From Candidatus Iainarchaeum sp. (GTDB taxonomy: Archaea > Iainarchaeota > Iainarchaeia > Iainarchaeales > CSSED10-239), in assembly GCA_028700115.1 (NCBI GenBank), contig JAQVTI010000001.1:150001-182000 (forward strand): a DNA stretch of 32,000 bases, given 5' to 3'. Shown piece after piece: positions 10,508-20,290 of the stretch (the stretch's first letter is position 1; each line of letters begins with the position of its first letter). The translations under genes and the position numbers were made by a program. Under the pieces are notes generated by a model. The model worked only from the letters and a program-made list of their open reading frames with translations. It was not told the origin of the DNA and did not search any database.

Positions 10508-12817
10508 ATGAAGATAGGAAAATATACTGTTGGAAACTACATAGTTACTCAAGAAGGAAATAAAAAAAAATTAGTTTTTGACTGTAGAAACTGTCCATAT
10601 AATACATCAATTGCAGAAGATGCAAGATGTAGATACCATGTTTTAAAAACATTAGAAACAATAGATGCAGATGAAATAATATTAGCAGAAGTATATGAAA
10701 GAAGCTATGATAAAATACAAACAAAATTTTTAAAAGAAATGGTAAATCTTGGGATGGATTTTGAAAATAAAGCTGTTTGGGTTTCAGAACATTTAAATAT
10801 TAATGATATTGATTGCGATCAATGTTACCCACAAAGACATAATAATATTTTAAAATTTGCAAGAGAACTAATCTCATATGACCCAATAGCATCATATATA
10901 ACTTTATTAAAAGAAATAGAAAACAATAAAACAAGAGAAGAAGACTCAAAAGGAAAAGAATGCGAAAAATGCTTTACTGCAAATATAAATCATTTATTAA
11001 ATTTAAAAAAACAATATGAAAAAACTGAGTTTATTAGAAGAATCAAACCAATTTTAGTAAAAAGCAAAGATCTTTCTGACTTAACAGATATTTATAGAAC
11101 CATTTTTGAAGTAGAAATAAAACCATCTTTTATTGGATCTAAAATATCTTTTGAAAATATGGATAAATTAGAACTAATAGACGAATACCAAGTATTAAAC
11201 ACAAATGTACAAATATTTAAACATCCAGAAAAAATAGAATATATGTATATGATTAACCCCCCAGAGTACACACTTTCTCCAGACCATTATTTTGTACTTA
11301 CAAAAACAAAAGAAACTGTTGCAAACTATGCTCCTGGAACAGTTACTCTTACAACAGGGGATTCAACTAGAAAATACTTTCAAAGAATATATCAAAGCAC
11401 AATAACAGATATTGCACGAAAATTTGCAATAAACATAAATGCAGAAGACATTTTTGCACTTTCTGAAATAGTTACAAGATATACAATTGGATATGGAATT
11501 TTAGAATTACTACTTTCAGACAGACAAGTAACAGATGTTTATCTAGACTCACCACTTGGTTCAAAACCAATCTATTTAGTTCACTCTAAATATGGACAAT
11601 GCCAAACAAACATACAATACCCAGAAAGCGATGCTGAAAGCTTTATTGGAAAAATTAGAGCAATGTCTGGAAGACCATTTGATGATGCACATCCAATTTT
11701 AGACTTTGATTTACCAGATCTTAACACAAGAATTGCAATTATTGGAAGACCTCTTGCAACTGATGGGATTGCATTTGCATTCAGACTTCATAAAGACACT
11801 CCTTGGACTCTACCACAGTTAATAAATGTAAAATCACTTAACTCACTTGCAGCAGGTATGCTTTCATTTTTTATAGATAATAATTCAACTATGCTAATTG
11901 CAGGATCACGTGGTGCAGGAAAAACTTCTTTAATGACTTCTTTAATGCTTGAGATTCTACAAAACAGTAGAATCATAGTTCAAGAAGACACATTAGAACT
12001 TCCTGTAATGTACATGAAAGATATTGGGTTTAATGCCCAAAGACTAAAAACAAGATCTGCAATTGGTGGAACAGGAGATCTAGCAACATCTGAAGTTAAA
12101 CCAGAAGATGCTCTAAGAACAGCTTTAAGACTTGGTGACTCTGCTTTAATTGTTGGGGAAGTTAGAAGTGTTGAGGCTAAAGTTTTATATGAAGCCATGA
12201 GAATTGGTGCAGCTGGAAATGTTGTTATGGGAACAATACATGCTGATTCAGCTTATGCAGTTTGGGATAGAGTTGTAAATGATCTAGAAGTTCCAACAAC
12301 TTCTTTTAAGGCAACTGATATTGTAGTTGTTGCAAAGCCTATAAGATTTAAAGGATCTTTAAAAAACCATAGAAGAGTAGTTCAAATCACAGAAGTTAGA
12401 AAGCATTGGAATAATGATCCAGATGCAGAAGGCGGACTTTTAAACTTAATGGAATATGATGCTTCAAAAGATACACTTGTTTTAAATGAAGATGCTCTAA
12501 AAGACTCTGAGATGTTTACAAAGATAAGTAAACTTTCTGGTATGAAGATAGAAGAGATTTGGGAGAACATTAACTTAAGGTCAAAAGAGAAACAGTTCCA
12601 AGTAGATTTTGCAAAAGAAAAAGATGTGATTGAAATTTTAGAGGCAGAACACACTGTTTTTGCACACAACAAGCTTCTTATCATGAAAGAAGAATATTTG
12701 GAGTATTATAATGATAAGCTAGATTATAATGATTTATACGAAAAATGGAAAAAATGGTATACAGAAAGCTTTGCTCCAAGAGTAATTAAAAGAATAAAAG
12801 ATAATAGAATTGAATAA
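10508..12817 (+). CDS. Type II/IV secretion / type IV pilus family ATPase (PilB/ArlI-like) with a long Cys-containing N-terminal extension
   Basis: Walker A AGSRGAGKTS, Walker B-like ALIVGEVRSVEA, His box GTIHADSA. About 430 N-terminal residues contain CRNCP...CRYH, CDQC and CEKC pairs. Confidence 0.85.
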   Translation: MKIGKYTVGNYIVTQEGNKKKLVFDCRNCPYNTSIAEDARCRYHVLKTLETIDADEIILAEVYERSYDKIQTKFLKEMVNLGMDFENKAVWVSEHLNINDIDCDQCYPQRHNNILKFARELISYDPIASYITLLKEIENNKTREEDSKGKECEKCFTANINHLLNLKKQYEKTEFIRRIKPILVKSKDLSDLTDIYRTIFEVEIKPSFIGSKISFENMDKLELIDEYQVLNTNVQIFKHPEKIEYMYMINPPEYTLSPDHYFVLTKTKETVANYAPGTVTLTTGDSTRKYFQRIYQSTITDIARKFAININAEDIFALSEIVTRYTIGYGILELLLSDRQVTDVYLDSPLGSKPIYLVHSKYGQCQTNIQYPESDAESFIGKIRAMSGRPFDDAHPILDFDLPDLNTRIAIIGRPLATDGIAFAFRLHKDTPWTLPQLINVKSLNSLAAGMLSFFIDNNSTMLIAGSRGAGKTSLMTSLMLEILQNSRIIVQEDTLELPVMYMKDIGFNAQRLKTRSAIGGTGDLATSEVKPEDALRTALRLGDSALIVGEVRSVEAKVLYEAMRIGAAGNVVMGTIHADSAYAVWDRVVNDLEVPTTSFKATDIVVVAKPIRFKGSLKNHRRVVQITEVRKHWNNDPDAEGGLLNLMEYDASKDTLVLNEDALKDSEMFTKISKLSGMKIEEIWENINLRSKEKQFQVDFAKEKDVIEILEAEHTVFAHNKLLIMKEEYLEYYNDKLDYNDLYEKWKKWYTESFAPRVIKRIKDNRIE

Positions 12818-12818
12818 A

Positions 12819-13019
12819 TTATTCTATTATCTTCCATTGTCCTTTTTTTGTAGAACCAATTCTCTTTAATTTACCTTTTTCTTTTAATTTAGATATATTC
12901 CACTCAACACCCCTAACAGATAATCCAACTTTTAAAGATAATTCTTTTACAGTAATATTAGGATTTTTCTTAATTAATAAAATTATTTTATCCACAGTTT
13001 CTTCCACAGTCTCTTCCAC
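12819..13019 (-). CDS. Small winged-helix DNA-binding protein
   Basis: ILLIKKNPNITVKELSLKVGLSVRGVEWNISKLKEKGKLKRIGSTKKGQWKII resembles the C-terminal wHTH of larger AlbA_2/HATPase_c_4-type regulators. There is no ATG. The annotated start is a GTG inside a 12-bp tandem repeat, so the start is uncertain. Confidence 0.55.
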   Translation of the reverse strand: MEETVEETVDKIILLIKKNPNITVKELSLKVGLSVRGVEWNISKLKEKGKLKRIGSTKKGQWKIIE

Positions 13020-13030
13020 AGTCTCTTCAA
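12991..13030. repeat. 12-bp tandem repeat TCCACAGT(C/T)TCT, about 3.3 copies, encoding (EETV)n on the minus strand
   Basis: Read directly. It spans the 5' end of the wHTH ORF, and each unit contains a potential GTG start. Confidence 0.85.
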
Positions 13031-13065
13031 AAATTATTTAAAAACAAATAAAATATATATAATTT

Positions 13066-13105
13066 TCTAAAAGTCAACTAATTAATTAGCAAACTAATTA
13101 AATAA
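13066..13105. promoter_or_regulatory. Motif TCTAAAAGTCAACTAATTAA... in the divergent promoter between the wHTH gene and the 208-aa gene; shared with 15194-15280
   Basis: TCTAAAAGTCAACTA occurs at about 13066, 15194 and 15227. ACTAATTAAATAATA is also shared with 15263-15280. Confidence 0.5.
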
Positions 13106-13174
13106 TATAGAATAATTTATAAATATAATAAACAATATTAATATATTATTTAAAAAAACAAAACAAGAGAAAAC

Positions 13175-13801
13175 ATGAAATTATTTAATAGAGTTAGAAA
13201 ACCTAAAAGAGAGACACCTCATAAGATAATAGAAAAAACATATAAAATAAATGAACTTGAAGCAGCTTTTACAAAAGAGAAAGGCAAAAACTCAAAATTA
13301 AAAGAAATAAATGCAGTTAGAAGAAAAGATTCAGGTAAATTTGTTTTAGGAGATATTAAAGATAAATTTTACCACACACATATTCTAGATAGTCTAAAAG
13401 AAAGAAATAAATTAATACCTAGTCCAGAAGACATAGTTACATCTAGTTTACTTAAAAGATATAAGAATGTAAAAAACAATGGTGTTTTTCTAATACACAA
13501 AGGTAAAGAAATTGGAAAAATACATTTTAGATTAAGTGATAAATTTATTAAAGATATTAGAGAAGGAACAGAGAGAGCAAGTAAGACTAATAAAGATATT
13601 AATAAGGTTGATTTTTTTAATGCATTTCTAAAACTAAGAATAAGTAATATTTATTCTTTTAATATTTTAAAAGATAAAATGACTTTAGAAAAACAAGTTA
13701 AGATAATTAATGAACTTAAAAAAGAAGGTATACAAATAAAATATAAAGCAATGCCTGGATATAAGTTTAATGAAAAAACTATGCTTTTTGAAAAAGCATA
13801 A
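13175..13801 (+). CDS. Hypothetical lysine-rich protein (208 aa)
   Basis: Intact ORF with an ATG start. I recognise no motif. Confidence 0.5.
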   Translation: MKLFNRVRKPKRETPHKIIEKTYKINELEAAFTKEKGKNSKLKEINAVRRKDSGKFVLGDIKDKFYHTHILDSLKERNKLIPSPEDIVTSSLLKRYKNVKNNGVFLIHKGKEIGKIHFRLSDKFIKDIREGTERASKTNKDINKVDFFNAFLKLRISNIYSFNILKDKMTLEKQVKIINELKKEGIQIKYKAMPGYKFNEKTMLFEKA

Positions 13802-13825
13802 AACTAATTTTATTTTTATAAAAAA
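13773..13825. repeat. About 53-bp direct repeat, copy 1: the last 8 codons plus the 3' flank of the 208-aa gene
   Basis: AAAAAACTATGCTTTTTGAAAAAGCATAAAACTAATTTTATTTTTATAAAAAA recurs at 15282..15335. It is identical apart from A-run lengths. Confidence 0.9.
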
Positions 13826-15159
13826 CTTTTTGGTTTTTCTAACATAGCTAAAAACATACATACAGGTATAACTAAATTATTATTTAGATTAATATCTGCA
13901 GGTGCAACTAAATTTTTTGAAAGCATAATATATTCATCAACATCTTCTATAAAATTAGGTTTTTTAAATTTATTTCTATATTTAACTTCAATTGCTTTAT
14001 TTTTAAAAACAAAATCAATTTCTTTTTGATCTACATTATAATATTTTAATTCTAAATTATAAATATTTTGTAAATGACTACCAACTGTATTTTCTACAAG
14101 CTTACCTAAAAAAGTATCATTAAATAAAAGAGATCTACTTTCTTCAAAAGAATCTAAATTATTTGAATAGTTTAATAAAGAATGAATAATAAAAGGATCT
14201 TTAATATAAAATTTCTTTAAAAGATCTCTTGCAGATTCTTTTATTTCAAAAATAATTAATAATTCTTTTAATTCATTTAAATATTTTTTAATAGTATCTA
14301 TAGAATAACCTGTTTTTTCACTAATAGTTGTATATTTTAAAGAACCAGTTAAAGATTCAATTAAAACTTTTAATATTTCAATAGATTTTGTTTTATCCAT
14401 TTTTTCAAATATTTTTTGAATAATATCTTCATAATATTTTTCAGAAATTGAATTATTTTTAAAATAAGAGTTTATAGTTTCTGGAAAACCACCTGTTAAT
14501 AAATAAATATTAAAATATTTATTAATTTCATCAAAATAAGATTCTATATTTAAAAATTTACTAAGTATATCTTCATTAGATAAATTTAAATTAATTTCAG
14601 ACTTAACTAAAAGGTTATATAAACTTAAATTATCAGTTTTAGTTATATTTAAAAGAAATTGCCTAAAAGTTAAAGAAGACATAACTTTTATTTCTTCAGA
14701 TCTTCCAATTAATGCTTGTTTACATTCTTCAATTTTTCTAGGATCAGAACCAGTAACTACTAAACAAATATCTTTTAATAAATTAGAATCTTTTAAAGCT
14801 TTTAAAAAGGCACAACTATTTTGTAAAGATTGAATCTCATCAAATAAAATAATTTTAATAGGATATAAATTAATTATTTTTTCCATTTGCCTAAATAGTT
14901 CTTTTTCTTTTAAATTTAATAAAATATCAAAATTAAAATAAATTACTTCCTTTGAATTAGTAGAATAAGCAATTTGTTTTAAATAAATTGTTTTTCCTAC
15001 TCTTCTAGGTCCTTTAATTAAATTTATAGTCCCAGGAGTAAGATTTATAGAATCTCTAGTTATAATATATTTATTTTTAGATAAATTATCTATATCTGGA
15101 TCTTTTTTTCCTGAAAACCAGGGATTTTGACTTAAAACAACATTCCAATCTAAAGGCAT
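13816..15159 (-). CDS. AAA+ ATPase of the COG1373 type (AAA_14 N-domain plus DUF4143, PD-(D/E)xK-like C-domain)
   Basis: NPWF near the N-terminus, Walker A GPRRVGKT, Walker B ILFDEIQ, GS...LTFRQF, LLTGGFPE, and a C-terminal E..(x)n..EIDFV...IEVK nuclease-like triad. Confidence 0.85.
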   Translation of the reverse strand: MPLDWNVVLSQNPWFSGKKDPDIDNLSKNKYIITRDSINLTPGTINLIKGPRRVGKTIYLKQIAYSTNSKEVIYFNFDILLNLKEKELFRQMEKIINLYPIKIILFDEIQSLQNSCAFLKALKDSNLLKDICLVVTGSDPRKIEECKQALIGRSEEIKVMSSLTFRQFLLNITKTDNLSLYNLLVKSEINLNLSNEDILSKFLNIESYFDEINKYFNIYLLTGGFPETINSYFKNNSISEKYYEDIIQKIFEKMDKTKSIEILKVLIESLTGSLKYTTISEKTGYSIDTIKKYLNELKELLIIFEIKESARDLLKKFYIKDPFIIHSLLNYSNNLDSFEESRSLLFNDTFLGKLVENTVGSHLQNIYNLELKYYNVDQKEIDFVFKNKAIEVKYRNKFKKPNFIEDVDEYIMLSKNLVAPADINLNNNLVIPVCMFLAMLEKPKSFL

Positions 15160-15193
15160 ATATTAATTATACACCTATAAGTTTATAAATTTA

Positions 15194-15280
15194 TCTAAAA
15201 GTCAACTAGTTAACTAGTTGAAATTATCTAAAAGTCAACTAATTAACTAATTAACTAATTAACTAATTAATTAAATAATA
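15194..15280. promoter_or_regulatory. Repeat-rich promoter region of ATPase 1: two TCTAAAAGTCAACTA motifs, a perfect 18-bp palindrome and an (AACTAATT)n run
   Basis: The palindrome CAACTAGTTAACTAGTTG is at 15203..15220. AACTAATT is repeated about 4 times at 15237..15268. On the minus strand, a TTTATAAAC TATA-like box and GGTG lie between the palindrome and the ATG at 15159. Confidence 0.55.
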
Positions 15281-15281
15281 A

Positions 15282-15335
15282 AAAAAACTATGCTTTTTGA
15301 AAAAGCATAAAACTAATTTTATTTTTATAAAAAAA
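15282..15335. repeat. About 53-bp direct repeat, copy 2 (orphan 3' end of the 208-aa gene)
   Basis: See 13773..13825. This copy has no gene body upstream of it. It is preceded directly by the promoter-like motif. Confidence 0.9.
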
Positions 15336-15911
15336 TCATACATTAATATAGTCTTTATGAATATACTCTTTTACAAATAATAAAACATCTTTATTTGTAA
15401 ATTGATTTATACTCTTTTTATGATCTTCAAAAAACAGTTCATAACAATATCTAAGATATGAAGGATTAAGAGTTTTTACTTGGTTAAAAAATTTAACTTT
15501 TAACTCTTTAGAAATATCTAATTCTTTTATTTTTTTATCTAATTTATATTTTAAGATATTTCCTTGTCTATCAGATCTATTAACATAGATTTCTGCTTCA
15601 CGTTTTTCTATTTGTGCATATTTTAAAAAATGTTCAACAATTTTTATATATTCTTTTTGAGTTAGTTTTTTCATTAACTCTTTTGTAGTCATGTTTTTTT
15701 TATCTCTTAAAAGAATATTATGCATATGAAAAACAATATCAGAATCTGATAAAAATTTATCTTTTTGTTTAATTAGTTCTCTTAGTTTAGGGTCTACTAC
15801 TTTTTGATTTAGTTTCTTTGTAGACCTATTTCTAGTTATTTTAAAACTTTGTCTTTTTTCCTTAAATGTATAAGGTTTATTTGTTTTTGGATTTATTTTT
15901 CTAAAAGGCAT
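15336..15911 (-). CDS. Hypothetical lysine-rich protein (191 aa)
   Basis: Intact ORF with an ATG start, lying between AbiEii-1 and ATPase 1. No recognisable motif. Confidence 0.5.
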   Translation of the reverse strand: MPFRKINPKTNKPYTFKEKRQSFKITRNRSTKKLNQKVVDPKLRELIKQKDKFLSDSDIVFHMHNILLRDKKNMTTKELMKKLTQKEYIKIVEHFLKYAQIEKREAEIYVNRSDRQGNILKYKLDKKIKELDISKELKVKFFNQVKTLNPSYLRYCYELFFEDHKKSINQFTNKDVLLFVKEYIHKDYINV

Positions 15912-16013
15912 AAATAATTAACTCTTTTATATTATAACAAATATATAAAAGATAAATAAATTTATAAATAGTAATTTTTATTAAAAAAATAAATTTTTTT
16001 AAAGAAAATTCAT

Positions 16014-16736
16014 TTAATTAATTTTATTTAAAATAAACTTACAAATAAGTTTAAAATCTAATCTATATTTTTTTAAAATATAATGATTTGTTGAATTATT
16101 ATACAATTTTATTTTATAATCATCATTTATTATATTATTTAATTTATTAATAACTATAGATTTATCTTTTATTGGAAAATTATTATCTTTTAGTATAACA
16201 TAGATATCATAAATATCTTTACCTTCATCTCTATTTATAAAAGCTTTAATTTTTTGATAAAATAATTCTTCTAAACTATAAACATTAAAATAAGATATAT
16301 CAAAATCAACAAATCCAGGATAAATTATTTTTTTATTAATATCAGGCATATCTTTATTATTTAATCTAAATTCAAGCATAATTTTATCTTTTTGATTAAT
16401 CTCATTAATATACTGAATATCAAATCTAATTGTTTTATTCATGATTCTTGGTTTATTTACAATATAAGATTTCAAATATTTTTTTAAAATTAAATAAATA
16501 TCTTCTTTTAAAATATTTATTTCTTTTTTAGAAAAAATATCAAAATCAATATCTTCAGAAAATCTTTTAAATTTATTAAAATAAACTCTATTTAAAGAAG
16601 TTCCTCCTTTTAATATTATATTATCAAATTTATTCTCTAATAATTTAAATATTTTTGAAATTTCTTTATCTTTTATAATATAATTTGTAGATAATCCAGT
16701 ATCTAAACAAATTTTTCTAATAAGTTTTATATCCAT
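16014..16736 (-). CDS. AbiEii/AbiGii-family nucleotidyltransferase toxin (DUF1814), copy 1
   Basis: Signature ILKGGTSLNRVY....RFSEDIDFDI. The ATG at 16736 lies 4 nt after the AbiEi stop. The track start at 16757 is a TTG inside the upstream gene. Confidence 0.8.
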   Translation of the reverse strand: MDIKLIRKICLDTGLSTNYIIKDKEISKIFKLLENKFDNIILKGGTSLNRVYFNKFKRFSEDIDFDIFSKKEINILKEDIYLILKKYLKSYIVNKPRIMNKTIRFDIQYINEINQKDKIMLEFRLNNKDMPDINKKIIYPGFVDFDISYFNVYSLEELFYQKIKAFINRDEGKDIYDIYVILKDNNFPIKDKSIVINKLNNIINDDYKIKLYNNSTNHYILKKYRLDFKLICKFILNKIN

Positions 16737-16740
16737 TAAT

Positions 16741-17529
16741 TTAATACCACCAATCAATTATATTTTTTTCACCTAAATTATCTTTTAGTTTCCATTTATC
16801 TATATATTTTGATTTTTTATTATTTATATTTAATAAATAAGTATTAGATTTGTCTTGAGATAATAAATATTTTAAAAAATAATTAGGTATTTTTAAATTT
16901 GTATTTTTAAGTAAAATATCTAAAATATAGCCAGTAATTTGATTTTGTCTTTTACTAGAGTATTTTTTATAAATTAATAATAATTTATTCCAATTTATTT
17001 TATTTGAACCTAAATATATAGCTTTAGATAAAATAGAATAACTACCTATATATTTAAATTTATTAAAACAATCAAATATAGTTTTTTCTAAAGAAGAAAT
17101 ATAAATATTATCTATTCTTATAAAATCATTATAAAAATTAGTATTTATATATTTTAGATTATATTCATATAATTTAATATTTTTAGATTTTTTATTAGTA
17201 GAAATATATATGTTGAAAGGATGGTAATCTATTAAACCATAATAAAATAAAGCAGATGAAAAAGAAATATATCCAGGATATAAATTAGTTGCTATTTCAA
17301 AAAGATCATTTATTGAAAAAATATCTTTTTTAATATAATTATTTTTTTTAAGATTTAATAAATACCCTTTATCTTTTAATTGTTTTAATAAAAAATTAAT
17401 CTTATAATTAGAATAATCTTTAAAAGCAGATTTTAAATCATTGTTTTTTAATATATTATTCTTTTTTTTAGAATCTATATAGTTATACAAATAATTTTCA
17501 TTATTTGTTAATTGGTTATTTTTTTGCAT
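16741..17529 (-). CDS. AbiEi-like antitoxin / transcriptional regulator, copy 1
   Basis: It sits immediately upstream of AbiEii. The motifs LKDKGYLLNLKKNNY, YPGYISFSSALFYYGL, SLEKTIFDC and NQITGYILD follow the AbiEi (COG5340) pattern. Confidence 0.7.
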   Translation of the reverse strand: MQKNNQLTNNENYLYNYIDSKKKNNILKNNDLKSAFKDYSNYKINFLLKQLKDKGYLLNLKKNNYIKKDIFSINDLFEIATNLYPGYISFSSALFYYGLIDYHPFNIYISTNKKSKNIKLYEYNLKYINTNFYNDFIRIDNIYISSLEKTIFDCFNKFKYIGSYSILSKAIYLGSNKINWNKLLLIYKKYSSKRQNQITGYILDILLKNTNLKIPNYFLKYLLSQDKSNTYLLNINNKKSKYIDKWKLKDNLGEKNIIDWWY

Positions 17530-17734: not shown

Positions 17735-20290
17735 TTACATGTTTTCAATAACGTTGATTAATTCTTTAGCAGCCATTGCAGTGTCTTCAGCTGTCATTCC
17801 AGCAACAACAATATTACCTTCAGCGTTTTGTCCTAATACATAGTCTCCAGAAGCTGTTAACATAGTATCTAATCCTATATTTTGAGCTAATGTGTTAACT
17901 AAGTGACCACCAACAATGATTTTGTTTCCTGCTGGGTTTTCGTTATCAAGGTATACTAATTTGTTTGTTGCAACATTCCATGTCATTGGAACAATAGCAT
18001 CAGTTGCAGCTCCACCAGATAAAGCAACAGCATCTAATGATACAGATACTCCGTCTTCTGTTTGTTGTTCTCCTTCAGCTGTTAAAGTGAATGTTGAACC
18101 GTTAATTGATGTTGAAGTACTAGCTCCTCCACCAACGAAGATTTGTCCATATAATTTAGTATCAGGAACAATTGCAGTAAACATACCTCCGTCTACTTCA
18201 GCATATGTACCAAATTCTGTATATCCCCAAGTTAAATCATCAGAATCTTCTTGATTTAGTGTGTAAGTTACAGCATCACCAGTTGTGAAAGCTGAATTTC
18301 CATTTACAACAAGAACTTGATCAACAACAGCTAAATAAGATGAATCATCTGTATCTACTAAATTTCCAGTTCCAGCATCAATATGAGCTACTACTGAATC
18401 TTGACCATCATCAACAACAAATTCAAACATAGATTTCATATCAGTACCGTCTGTTAAAACACCTGTAGCAGTTTTACCAACATATGTACCATCACTAGTT
18501 GCAGCAACATCTATTTGTGTATATATATTTTTAATAGTCCAATCTTGAGTAGGACTATCAATAGTACCTTCAATAGATCCTGCAGCACCTTCTTTAAGAC
18601 CTAATGCAAATTGAGTAATATCATTTGTTCCAGTTGCACCATCTTCGTTAATATATAAACCATAAGCTAATTTTTCAGATTCATTATTATATAATGGGAT
18701 TGTTAAATCTGTAAATGCAGCATCTGTGTAAACAAATTTAGAATTATCTGTATTTGTTGTTTCCCAAGTCCAAACATTAGAAGTTTTTGTTAAGTAATCT
18801 CCATCATCATCTTCTAATTGAACTGTGAAATAACCAATATCTAAAGCATCATTTGCAGCATTAGGAATTCCACCAACATTGGAATCTTCATTACCATATA
18901 TAAAACTATCATAAGAACCTACATCTGTAGTAGTATTAAAATCCTCATCAGCTGTATGGAATTCAATGTATAATTTCTTATCATCTAATGTTTGCATAGT
19001 TGTATAGTTTTCACCATCTCCGTAAGTTCCATCTTCTTCTTCATAAAAGAATACTTTGTGATCGTCGTCAGTAGCATCTATATAAGAAATATATCCATCT
19101 TCAACAATTACTTCTTTTGATGATTCATTAGTTAAACCTAAAAAGTCAATAGAACCTAAATCAAATGGTAAAACAATAGAGTCATCTACTTTTAAAGCAT
19201 CTTCATCTTCCCATTGAACATCTTGATCTTCATTAGTAAATACTATTTTTGTAATAGGATCAGAACCTGTAAAACTAACTTTCCATAATTTATCATCTAT
19301 ATTTGGGAAATCTTCAATAATTTGTCCACTTTCAAGCTCTATACTTGTACTTGTACCTGAAACAACAGTTACTTTTTTATCATAAACTGTATCTATTTCT
19401 ACATTTGATTCTAAATATTCGTTGAATACTGTTTCATAATCTGTAAAAACTTCAGAAGCTAAAATTGCACCATTTTGAGAAATACTTAATTCAACAGAAT
19501 AATTATTACTAGATTCTAAAATATCTTCAACAGTGATTGTATATCCGTCAACTTCAAAAGAAGCACCTTCTTCATAAGGAGCTGTATTTTTATTTTGAAC
19601 TAAAGTTACAATTCCATTAGAATAGTCTTCAAGAGTATATTCATTACCCATTAAATTAAATTTGAAATCAGGACTACCTTCATCATTAGCACCATTATTA
19701 ATTCCAGGATTAAATTCAAGAGTATATGAAATATCCCCTCTATCAAATGATGCTGTTAAATCAGCTACATCTTTATCTGAATCAAAAGCAACTGTAGGAG
19801 TAATAGTAATACTTTCTTGTACATTTATTTCATCAGTATCAAAAATACTATCATCAACATCTACGTCATAATCTCCTAAAACAGAATAATCTCTGTCATC
19901 AAGAGTTTCTGTAACACTAGTAGATCCTAATTCCCAATCATCTGTTAACAAACCGTCTCCAGAAATTGTAGATGTTGATTCAGCACCAGCTGTAACAGTT
20001 ACACTTTCTAATGCAGCTCCAGCGATTGCGTCACCTGATGTGTAAGCTTTCTTTCCAATAGCAGCAGCTATGTTTCCAGCCCATACAACATCAACTGGTT
20101 GAGCCATAGATCCAACGATTACATTGTAAGCTGGTCCTGTAGCACCAAATAATTGATCTTTTGTTAAGTTGTCTATTCCAGTGTATGTGTCATCTGCCAT
20201 GTTAGCAGCAGCAACAGCACCTGCAAATAAAGCAGAAACTGCAAAAACACCTGCACCAGCAACTATTTTCTTCATATTTATATTCTTCAT
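17735..20290 (-). CDS. S-layer / major cell-surface protein
   Basis: Signal peptide MKNINMKKIVAGAGVFAVSALFAGAVAAA. The mature part is acidic, rich in T/D/G/S/V, and contains no Cys. The C-terminal IIVGGHLVN...NIVVAGMTAEDTAMAAKELI resembles the C-terminal domain of euryarchaeal S-layer proteins. A strong GGTGA Shine-Dalgarno is present. GC content is visibly higher than in neighbouring genes. Confidence 0.75.
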   Translation of the reverse strand: MKNINMKKIVAGAGVFAVSALFAGAVAAANMADDTYTGIDNLTKDQLFGATGPAYNVIVGSMAQPVDVVWAGNIAAAIGKKAYTSGDAIAGAALESVTVTAGAESTSTISGDGLLTDDWELGSTSVTETLDDRDYSVLGDYDVDVDDSIFDTDEINVQESITITPTVAFDSDKDVADLTASFDRGDISYTLEFNPGINNGANDEGSPDFKFNLMGNEYTLEDYSNGIVTLVQNKNTAPYEEGASFEVDGYTITVEDILESSNNYSVELSISQNGAILASEVFTDYETVFNEYLESNVEIDTVYDKKVTVVSGTSTSIELESGQIIEDFPNIDDKLWKVSFTGSDPITKIVFTNEDQDVQWEDEDALKVDDSIVLPFDLGSIDFLGLTNESSKEVIVEDGYISYIDATDDDHKVFFYEEEDGTYGDGENYTTMQTLDDKKLYIEFHTADEDFNTTTDVGSYDSFIYGNEDSNVGGIPNAANDALDIGYFTVQLEDDDGDYLTKTSNVWTWETTNTDNSKFVYTDAAFTDLTIPLYNNESEKLAYGLYINEDGATGTNDITQFALGLKEGAAGSIEGTIDSPTQDWTIKNIYTQIDVAATSDGTYVGKTATGVLTDGTDMKSMFEFVVDDGQDSVVAHIDAGTGNLVDTDDSSYLAVVDQVLVVNGNSAFTTGDAVTYTLNQEDSDDLTWGYTEFGTYAEVDGGMFTAIVPDTKLYGQIFVGGGASTSTSINGSTFTLTAEGEQQTEDGVSVSLDAVALSGGAATDAIVPMTWNVATNKLVYLDNENPAGNKIIVGGHLVNTLAQNIGLDTMLTASGDYVLGQNAEGNIVVAGMTAEDTAMAAKELINVIENM

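Follow-up and report, generated by a model that had tools for sequence, protein, structure and literature searches.

A COG1373 ATPase gene bracketed by copies of a neighbouring gene's 3′ end in a DPANN-type archaeon

The insertion of restriction-modification units with long duplication of their target was described by Nobusato et al. 2000, as cited in Furuta, Abe and Kobayashi 2010 (PMC2853133). The repeats flanking such units are 45–47 bp or ~390–420 bp long and genome-unique, overlap the 3′ end of a gene in two cases and are not accompanied by a mobility gene; according to Furuta et al. they permit amplification, and no archaeal case passed the repeat-flank screen of that study (PMC2853133). 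Here, we describe a locus of similar layout in Candidatus Iainarchaeum sp. (genome G000), in which a gene for a COG1373 ATPase lies between two identical copies, R and R′, of the last codons and 3′ flank of a neighbouring gene encoding 208 amino acids (the 208-aa gene). All positions refer to the window, i.e., the whole stretch of 32,000 nucleotides (nt) that was analysed (G000:C38:150001-182000), which stems from a 965-kb assembly of 47 contigs with 22% GC. The host is marked as a DPANN-type archaeon by its archaeal replication genes (MCM, RPA), its S-layer gene, and its small genome. Within the window, the locus belongs to a variable stretch bounded by a conserved T2SSE-type secretion ATPase gene on the left (10508–12817, + strand, assigned by Pfam T2SSE) and by the S-layer gene (17735–20290) on the right.

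COG1373/DUF4143 proteins are among the most widespread uncharacterised families of prokaryotic "defence islands". The DUF4143 domain has been placed in the PD-(D/E)xK nuclease superfamily (PMC3424549), and the searchable literature mentioning COG1373 or DUF4143 yielded nothing on function or mobility. We consider it somewhat more probable than the contrary that the position of the ATPase cassette between R and R′ is explained by insertion with long target duplication in the manner of the restriction-modification units, without participation of a recombinase.

The bracketed ATPase gene

R (13773–13825) and R′ (15282–15334) were reported by a repeat finder as a direct repeat of 53 nt with 100% identity and a spacing of 1509 nt, and the A-runs beside the two copies differ in length by 1–2 A. 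A preliminary description of this DNA, made from the letters of the sequence, had noted a 53-bp duplication of the 208-aa gene's 3′ end with copies differing only in the length of an A-run, which is borne out. A scan of the 965-kb genome revealed no copies beyond these two, even with 10 mismatches tolerated, and the sequence has no match in genome or metagenome collections; at a GC content of 22%, a 53-mer would be matched by chance with an estimated probability of ~0.33^53, which is negligible. The same description had regarded the repeat as the boundary of a cassette and had named a dispersed terminator or promoter element as the alternative. This alternative fails since R/R′ exist in only two copies, and it was rejected: the repeat, as well as the upstream motif discussed below, is restricted to this locus and corresponds to no Rfam family or tRNA, and searches of the region for Rfam families and tRNA genes (ARAGORN) detected none. 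Both repeats are backed by two independent assemblies, and assemblies of the same species that consist of short contigs are interrupted within R and within the operator repeats upstream of the ATPase gene.

R comprises the last eight codons and the stop codon of the 208-aa gene, a 14-nt spacer, and 10 nt of the ATPase coding end, and contains a hairpin with a 9-bp stem. When the 208-aa protein is aligned to homologues of five other genomes, its C-terminus proves to be conserved in the family, and this end plus the stop codon is exactly what the first 29 nt of the repeat encode. R′, located 1 nt from the stop codon of a gene for a 191-amino-acid protein (the 191-aa gene), is thus a genuine orphan gene end of the 208 family. 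The ATPase's own stop, Leu, and Phe codons make up the final 10 nt of the repeat (TTATAAAAAA), and these residues are invariant in ten orthologues. The repeat consequently spans the junction of two convergent genes, the 208-aa gene and the ATPase gene, and its 10-nt overlap with the ATPase end is read either as joint microhomology or as the margin of a conversion tract.

The ATPase gene (13816–15159, − strand) is the sole open reading frame (ORF) between R and R′ and is oriented opposite to the 208-aa gene, as had been stated in the preliminary description. Its product harbors an AAA_14 domain (71.8 bits, cut-off 27), a winged helix-turn-helix (wHTH), and DUF4143 (64.6 bits, cut-off 28.1), a domain of the PD-(D/E)xK type. 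It matches seven PADLOC models of the defence candidate PDC-S01 (best E = 8e-24), and the residues of its nuclease motif, D382, E391, and K393, are invariant in the orthologues. Pfam scans of the window's ORFs disclosed no recombinase domain, in keeping with the earlier remark that no recombinase is present. In the genome as assembled, one gene of the Phage_integrase family, coding for a tyrosine recombinase, resides on a different contig, and the search for TnpB gave nothing above the cut-off.

The 122 nt upstream of the ATPase gene (control region A′, 15160–15281, − strand) carry a TATA box (15182–15189), the word ACTTTTAGA, a perfect 20-nt palindrome (15202–15221), and two operator units (15193–15225 and 15226–15258) placed 33 nt apart and followed by a (AACTAATT)n run; the fold z-score of the region is −3.65. 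The block 15179–15281 is homologous to a block at 13043–13106 (motif A), upstream of the 208-aa gene, and is the larger of the two through a 33-nt internal tandem duplication and the (AACTAATT)n run. The 15-mer TCTAAAAGTCAACTA occurs exactly three times in the whole genome, at 13066, 15194, and 15227, each time on the + strand. The preliminary description had taken this motif for the upstream element of the 208-aa gene and the region containing R′ for the 208 locus minus its gene body. Comparison with relatives, referred to by their genome handles where they need to be told apart, leads to a different assignment. The ATPase orthologues of G001 and G004 are preceded by ACTTTTAGA plus a TATA box; ACTAGT-type palindromes are found upstream of the ATPase in G001 and G013 and a CCGG-type palindrome in G004, where a tandem unit with 33-nt spacing is present as well. 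The orthologues of G001, G004, and G013 have no 208 gene nearby. In the sister species, represented by the contig L068, the ATPase possesses two operator units of its own upstream, and the 208 gene starts 30 nt past the T2SSE gene and is devoid of the motif block. Since the same control layout accompanies orthologues without a nearby 208 gene, the motif beside R′ is the ATPase's native, putative promoter and operator and not that of the 208-aa gene, and the unit between the repeats thus consists of exactly promoter plus gene. Of the earlier interpretation, the derivation of the orphan end from the 208 locus holds, and the attribution of the adjacent motif to that locus does not. A contig of another assembly of this species, L116 (GCA_028691725.1, contig JAQUYT010000014.1), is identical to the window up to position 15270, inside the (AACTAATT)n run; its last 90 nt are GC-rich and resemble a gene start of a GC-richer organism, and the contig end is read as a chimera.

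Brackets in the sister species and across the order

One close homologue of the 208-aa protein was found by protein search (81% identity) and is encoded on L068, a 15-kb contig from another study that is syntenic with the window from the RIO kinase gene through the S-layer gene. The window interval 13152–15979 is colinear with L068 at 86% nt identity, and the T2SSE-type protein, which is 80–82% identical in all 6 genus relatives, reaches 93% in this sister species. L068 displays the same topology, with a 58-nt exact repeat (10586–10643 and 12113–12170) made up of the last 14 codons of its 208 gene plus flank, which dates the bracket to before the separation of the two species. ATPase orthologues (52–61% identity) are furthermore located between T2SSE and S-layer genes in three genera, with surroundings that differ by genome. 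The notion that the ATPase gene is a recent arrival is contradicted by its presence in the same island in three genera and by a bracket that predates the sister-species split.

In a four-way alignment, R and R′ are identical within each species, and the repeat ends differ between the species. A 6-nt indel after the stop codon is found in both L068 copies and in neither G000 copy. R′, which has no coding role, shows zero substitutions between the species; the adjoining operator region is 54% identical over 112 aligned columns. The species-specific indel shared by both copies indicates that R and R′ have undergone gene conversion or unequal exchange since the species separated, and as judged by these alignments the simplest account is that R and R′ evolve in concert through one or the other of these processes.

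The relatedness of the two loci was measured as third-codon-position identity within identical amino acids between G000 and L068. The baseline, 0.72–0.79 in the other ten genes compared, housekeeping MCM and RPA included, is represented to the left of T2SSE by eight genes spanning this same range (among them MCM, with n = 647 codons, RPA, SPP, and eIF2B). Identity climbs along the T2SSE gene toward the ATPase gene, from about 0.70 in the 5′ half of T2SSE to 0.80–0.88 in its 3′ half, 0.86 in the 208-aa gene, and 0.92 in the ATPase gene (n = 422 codons), and is back to baseline beyond it, with 0.77 in the 191-aa gene; the operator region is far more diverged still. The high synonymous identity of the ATPase allele and its left flank implies that they share an ancestor more recent than that of the genomes, and we infer from this gradient that the ATPase allele was probably exchanged between the lineages by homologous recombination, and recently. 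In the window interval 10508–15159, the gradient of synonymous identity against L068 resembles nested recombination tracts.

Brackets of different make-up surround COG1373 genes elsewhere in the order. In G001, the bracket is a 555-nt repeat combining the 3′ end of the T2SSE gene with that of a pilin-like gene, both single-copy in relatives; its perfect core of ~370 nt and diverged edges form the same signature as the concerted evolution of R/R′. Copies of S-layer gene 3′ flanks, 41–99 nt in length, bracket COG1373 genes in G013 and G014, exemplified by a 41-nt repeat in G013. In G014, three copies of one S-layer-type 3′ flank separate two COG1373 genes that are only about 28% alike, which fits serial insertion and not tandem duplication. 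A COG1373 paralogue at L112 is bracketed by a 58-nt copy of the T2SSE gene end. At L056, the last 35 nt of a tRNA gene confirmed by Rfam recur as an exact copy beyond the ATPase gene, and in G004 a tRNA gene stands ahead of a COG1373 gene that is followed by a degenerate copy of the tRNA 3′ end. The islands of G004, G005, and three further contigs contain no clear bracket.

The frequency of such arrangements was surveyed with a bracketing repeat of at least 30 nt and at least 85% identity as the criterion and with RtcB genes, whose flanks were longer, as controls. Brackets were found across the order at 9/28 usable COG1373 loci as compared to 1/27 RtcB controls (Fisher p = 0.012), figures that describe a tendency and not a rate since the survey genomes are partly related and hence not independent. 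The earlier contention that the topology recurs beyond chance, without a recombinase, thus holds for COG1373 and extends to other selfish-type genes. In the present genome, 33/613 genes pass a lenient bracket test, mostly through AT-rich matches of 30–37 nt, and brackets of at least 39 nt were found at only 8 loci among the 613 genes tested: three COG1373 genes (one of them weak), an AbiE pair, a Fic gene, a 208-family paralogue, a membrane protein gene, and a radical-SAM paralogue.

Two or three of the four COG1373 copies in this genome are accordingly bracketed. A second COG1373 gene (G000:C23:17795-19215, L048) is bracketed by a 65-nt repeat of 88% identity, which derives from the promoter-proximal region of the gene itself instead of from the end of a neighbour; at the orthologue in G003, which is 85% identical, tRNA-3′-end-like repeats take its place. 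The Fic-domain gene (G000:C38:12428-13515, outside the window) is bracketed by a 72-nt repeat of 92% identity. Since this repeat includes a TATA box as well as a long palindrome (TTAACGCCGAAA...TTTCGGCGTTAA), a promoter-like module lies before and after the gene.

Neighbouring genes and the strain-specific segment

The 208-aa gene (13175–13801, + strand) belongs to an uncharacterised family with an invariant E, an HxH and a PS..D motif, and a C-terminus that reads MPGYKFN..FEK, or MPGYKFN(E/K)..FEK in the alignment. The protein has no Pfam, NCBIfam, PADLOC, or PHROG match, a profile search of the family against PDB sequences gave nothing significant, and the AlphaFold model, built from 3 sequences, is unusable, with a predicted local distance difference test score (pLDDT) of 41. 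We take the E...HxH...PS..D arrangement, as a sequence pattern alone, to recall JAMM metalloproteases. In addition to the window gene, members of the family lie at G000:C29:13633-14277 and at L002 (G007:C25), and four tandem copies are present in one relative. A distant 208 paralogue elsewhere in the same genome has a 39-nt repeat bracket of its own.

The right flank is formed by the 191-aa gene (15336–15911, − strand), which has no family match and is fast-evolving, its sister-species orthologue being 48% identical by BLASTP and 54% over aligned columns. The possibility that the 191-aa gene is a copy of the ATPase gene that arose by tandem duplication and decayed was considered and rejected, the two proteins being without similarity. 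Next to it, an AbiEii/AbiEi toxin-antitoxin pair (16014–17529, − strand; Pfam, PADLOC) represents a further cassette of the same island. The pair is missing from the sister species, where an empty site is found at L068 12727–12969. The flanks of the pair total 307 nt here versus 243 nt in the empty site, and both align to an overlapping part of that site, which suggests that several tens of nt of the target were duplicated and have since decayed, in sequence too AT-rich for certainty. Across the family, the interval from T2SSE to S-layer genes is a hypervariable island with contents that vary by genome: 1–3 COG1373 genes, AbiE pairs, a putative PIN-like two-gene pair, pilin-like genes, and 191-like genes.

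To the left of the 208-aa gene, a 335-nt segment (12817–13151) is missing from the sister species, where the colinear alignment skips it. It harbors a 66-codon ORF (12819–13019, − strand) that corresponds to an orphan C-terminal wHTH fragment of a gene with SLFN_AlbA_2, HATPase_c_4, and wHTH domains. The ORF is 61% identical to the last 64 residues of a 440-aa protein, of which only residues 383–438 are matched. The open frames that hold its other matches measure 56 to 497 aa, in many cases 440 to 470 aa, and only the last 56–64 residues of the 440–470-aa proteins are matched. The fragment starts with a short tandem repeat (VEETVEETV), and the ORF is called with 62 instead of 66 codons in two other assemblies of the species. 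Between this ORF and the 208-aa gene lies motif A, a single-unit copy of the ATPase-type promoter/operator with a TATA-like run, ACTTTTAGA on the − strand, and half-palindromes. Motif A points at the orphan wHTH fragment and has no counterpart in the sister species. The idea that the 66-aa wHTH ORF is the motif's regulator gene was abandoned and the ORF recast as an orphan AlbA_2-type gene end; no motif A was found upstream of intact AlbA_2-type genes, and the ORF has no significant similarity to the ATPase. The presence of motif A beside an orphan AlbA_2 end is a second, strain-specific rearrangement.

Origin of the bracket and relation to known systems

Under recombinase-free insertion with long target duplication, the mobile entity would be a self-contained cassette of 1,456 bp (13826–15281), comprising the ATPase gene together with its two-unit palindromic operator and promoter. 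This cassette would have entered the convergent junction of the 208-aa and 191-aa genes through illegitimate recombination at the level of microhomology, and the target would have been duplicated in the process: the 208-aa gene would have stayed intact beside one end of the cassette, and its last codons and 3′ flank would have recurred as an orphan copy beside the other. The sites of joining were probably A/T-rich microhomologies, one repeat end overlapping the last three codons of the ATPase gene. Insertion would have preceded the split from the sister species; thereafter, gene conversion or unequal recombination, presumably by host functions, would have kept the repeat copies identical, and the cassette allele would have been traded between the lineages by homologous recombination. 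Because R and R′ are direct repeats, recombination between them could cleanly delete or amplify the cassette and leave the 208-aa gene whole. Re-insertion at the same site and homogenisation of the repeats would both be understandable if a circular or amplified intermediate carried one repeat copy; no such intermediate was observed.

When compared to the definition of insertion with long target duplication by Furuta et al. 2010, the locus exhibits repeats longer than 30 bp (53 nt, 100%), uniqueness of the repeat in the genome (two copies, 10 mismatches allowed), and an insert below 20 kb (1,456 bp, one gene) with no mobility gene in or beside it, and the cargo is an AAA_14 plus DUF4143 protein and not a restriction-modification system. 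The cassette works like a member of this class, yet lies outside the class as originally defined.

Several observations weigh against such an insertion. An empty-site allele (208 gene, one R, 191 gene) was detected neither in pattern scans of genomes and metagenome contigs nor in a protein-guided scan of metagenomes, so that the search for ATPase-free alleles in related genomes and metagenome contigs, which the preliminary description had proposed, remained without a hit; other assemblies of the same species show no empty site and break at the repeats only. L068 is the only close relative, and it also carries the insert. With no empty site at hand, the direction of the event, i.e., insertion of the ATPase gene and not of the 208-aa gene, rests on parsimony and on the pattern in relatives. 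ATPase orthologues adjoin the T2SSE gene in several relatives, and the ATPase gene could be an old resident of the island with the 208-aa gene as the newcomer. Moreover, a pure target duplication would not extend 10 nt into the ATPase coding end, as the repeat does, a single insertion leaves the operator copy at 13043–13106 unexplained, cassette termini differ between independent insertions, and the survey rests on small samples from genomes that are related to one another.

The orphan end could alternatively be a pseudogene remnant of a whole-locus duplication, in which a second, full 208 gene divergent from the ATPase gene lost its body. R′ is indeed a true 208 gene end, the orphan of the sister species retains 14 codons, and the 208 family forms tandem arrays elsewhere. 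Yet the orphan starts abruptly in both species with no decayed coding sequence upstream, the 112–122 nt between orphan and ATPase start are taken up by the ATPase operator, and a duplication plus at least one precise deletion would be required; the brackets of other COG1373 cassettes, derived from unrelated gene ends and a tRNA, would be left unexplained. This history is regarded as unlikely. Selection on function might also account for the identity of R and R′, were they bidirectional terminators or insulators behind the ATPase gene and the 191-aa gene. Both copies, on the − strand, form a 9–10-bp hairpin followed by a U-run right behind a stop codon, and R′ has been kept between the species while its surroundings diverged. 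The fold of the hairpin, however, does not surpass that of shuffled sequence (z about −1.2 to −1.5), and the element exists nowhere else in the genome; selection on the hairpin leaves unexplained both the 6-nt indel outside the stem and the identity of the coding part, and the origin of the repeat would still require a duplication. Little credence is given to a functional repeat.

Enzymatic mobility has to be considered in two forms. COG1373 proteins might themselves make staggered breaks or circles, bind the palindromes at the cassette end, and move their own gene, which would constitute a new kind of one-gene element. The clustering of brackets on COG1373 in the survey and in this genome would agree with such an activity, as would the uniform compactness of the bracketed cassettes (about 40–140 nt upstream and 0–90 nt downstream of the gene), the invariance of the nuclease-motif residues, and the operator palindromes at one cassette end; DNA breakage by the cargo was proposed by Furuta et al. 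as a common cause for restriction-modification genes (PMC2853133). On the other hand, a repeat length ranging from 35 to 555 nt and unconserved termini are unlike the work of an enzyme that recognizes element ends, the 25 longest of 126 inverted pairs include no terminal inverted repeats of the cassette, and the AbiE pair, the Fic gene, and the 208-family gene, all three lacking a recognised nuclease domain, are similarly bracketed in the same genome. Self-mobilisation of this ATPase gene seems quite unlikely on balance, and we are equally doubtful of the proposition that COG1373/PDC-S01 genes are autonomous one-gene mobile elements that generate long, variable target duplications and later undergo excision, amplification, or exchange via the flanking repeats. 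In the other form, R and R′ would be attL and attR of site-specific integration by a tyrosine recombinase that acts in trans (XerA-like) or has since been lost. Direct repeats at a gene 3′ end are a classic att footprint, a tRNA 3′ end serves as the repeat in some relatives, and the genome encodes one tyrosine recombinase. But no integrase is found in or near the unit, orthologous cassettes are flanked by unrelated repeats of 41 to 555 nt and therefore possess no common core site, and 555 nt far exceeds the length of an att site. The locus thus has neither the integrase nor the conserved att core of an integrative element, and with duplications of 35–555 nt, no transposase domain, and no terminal inverted repeats among the pairs inspected it does not resemble an insertion sequence or transposon. 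Unrelated repeats of such diverse length, unconserved cassette termini, and a window free of recombinases together argue against both a site-specific integrase and a classical transposase, and the att interpretation is held to be very improbable.

Insertion with long target duplication, if it applies here, would have several implications. The locus presents a COG1373 gene that appears to travel as a promoter-plus-gene unit bracketed by duplicated host sequence, in a genome of <1 Mb with a single tyrosine recombinase. The duplicates apparently keep recombining, as seen from their concerted evolution, and the sister species seem to have shared the cassette allele at a later date than the remainder of their genomes. 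The recurring footprint without a recombinase suggests that recombination alone suffices for the insertion, maintenance, and exchange of such genes, a possible route for reduced genomes to gain and lose accessory genes without dedicated mobility enzymes. Were self-mobilisation true, a new class of mobile element would be at hand that could explain the spread of the family across bacteria and archaea.

Among described systems, integron cassettes are similar in being compact single-gene units that are sometimes arrayed between copies of one sequence, as in G014; in contrast to them, each unit here has its own promoter, the units of different genomes share no attC-type site, and there is no integron integrase. 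Islands carried by integrases share with this locus a direct repeat of a gene 3′ end that flanks the insert and leaves the target gene intact, but differ from the one-gene unit of 1.46 kb described here, which has no integrase and no conserved core and whose relatives possess repeats of up to 555 nt. The ATPase has both Pfam domains of PDC-S01 and matches its PADLOC models; PDC-S01 is a candidate system, and its description says nothing on flanking repeats or mobility. The restriction-modification insertions likewise consist of a small selfish or defence-type unit between unique direct repeats of >30 bp and variable length, with no transposase or integrase. They differ with respect to cargo and host, which are here a single COG1373 (PDC-S01) ATPase-nuclease gene and a DPANN-type archaeon, so that insertion with long target duplication would no longer be confined to the restriction-modification systems of bacteria but would include a different cargo and the archaea. 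New in comparison with the restriction-modification cases are the indications that the repeats evolve in concert and that the cassette allele was recently exchanged between species.

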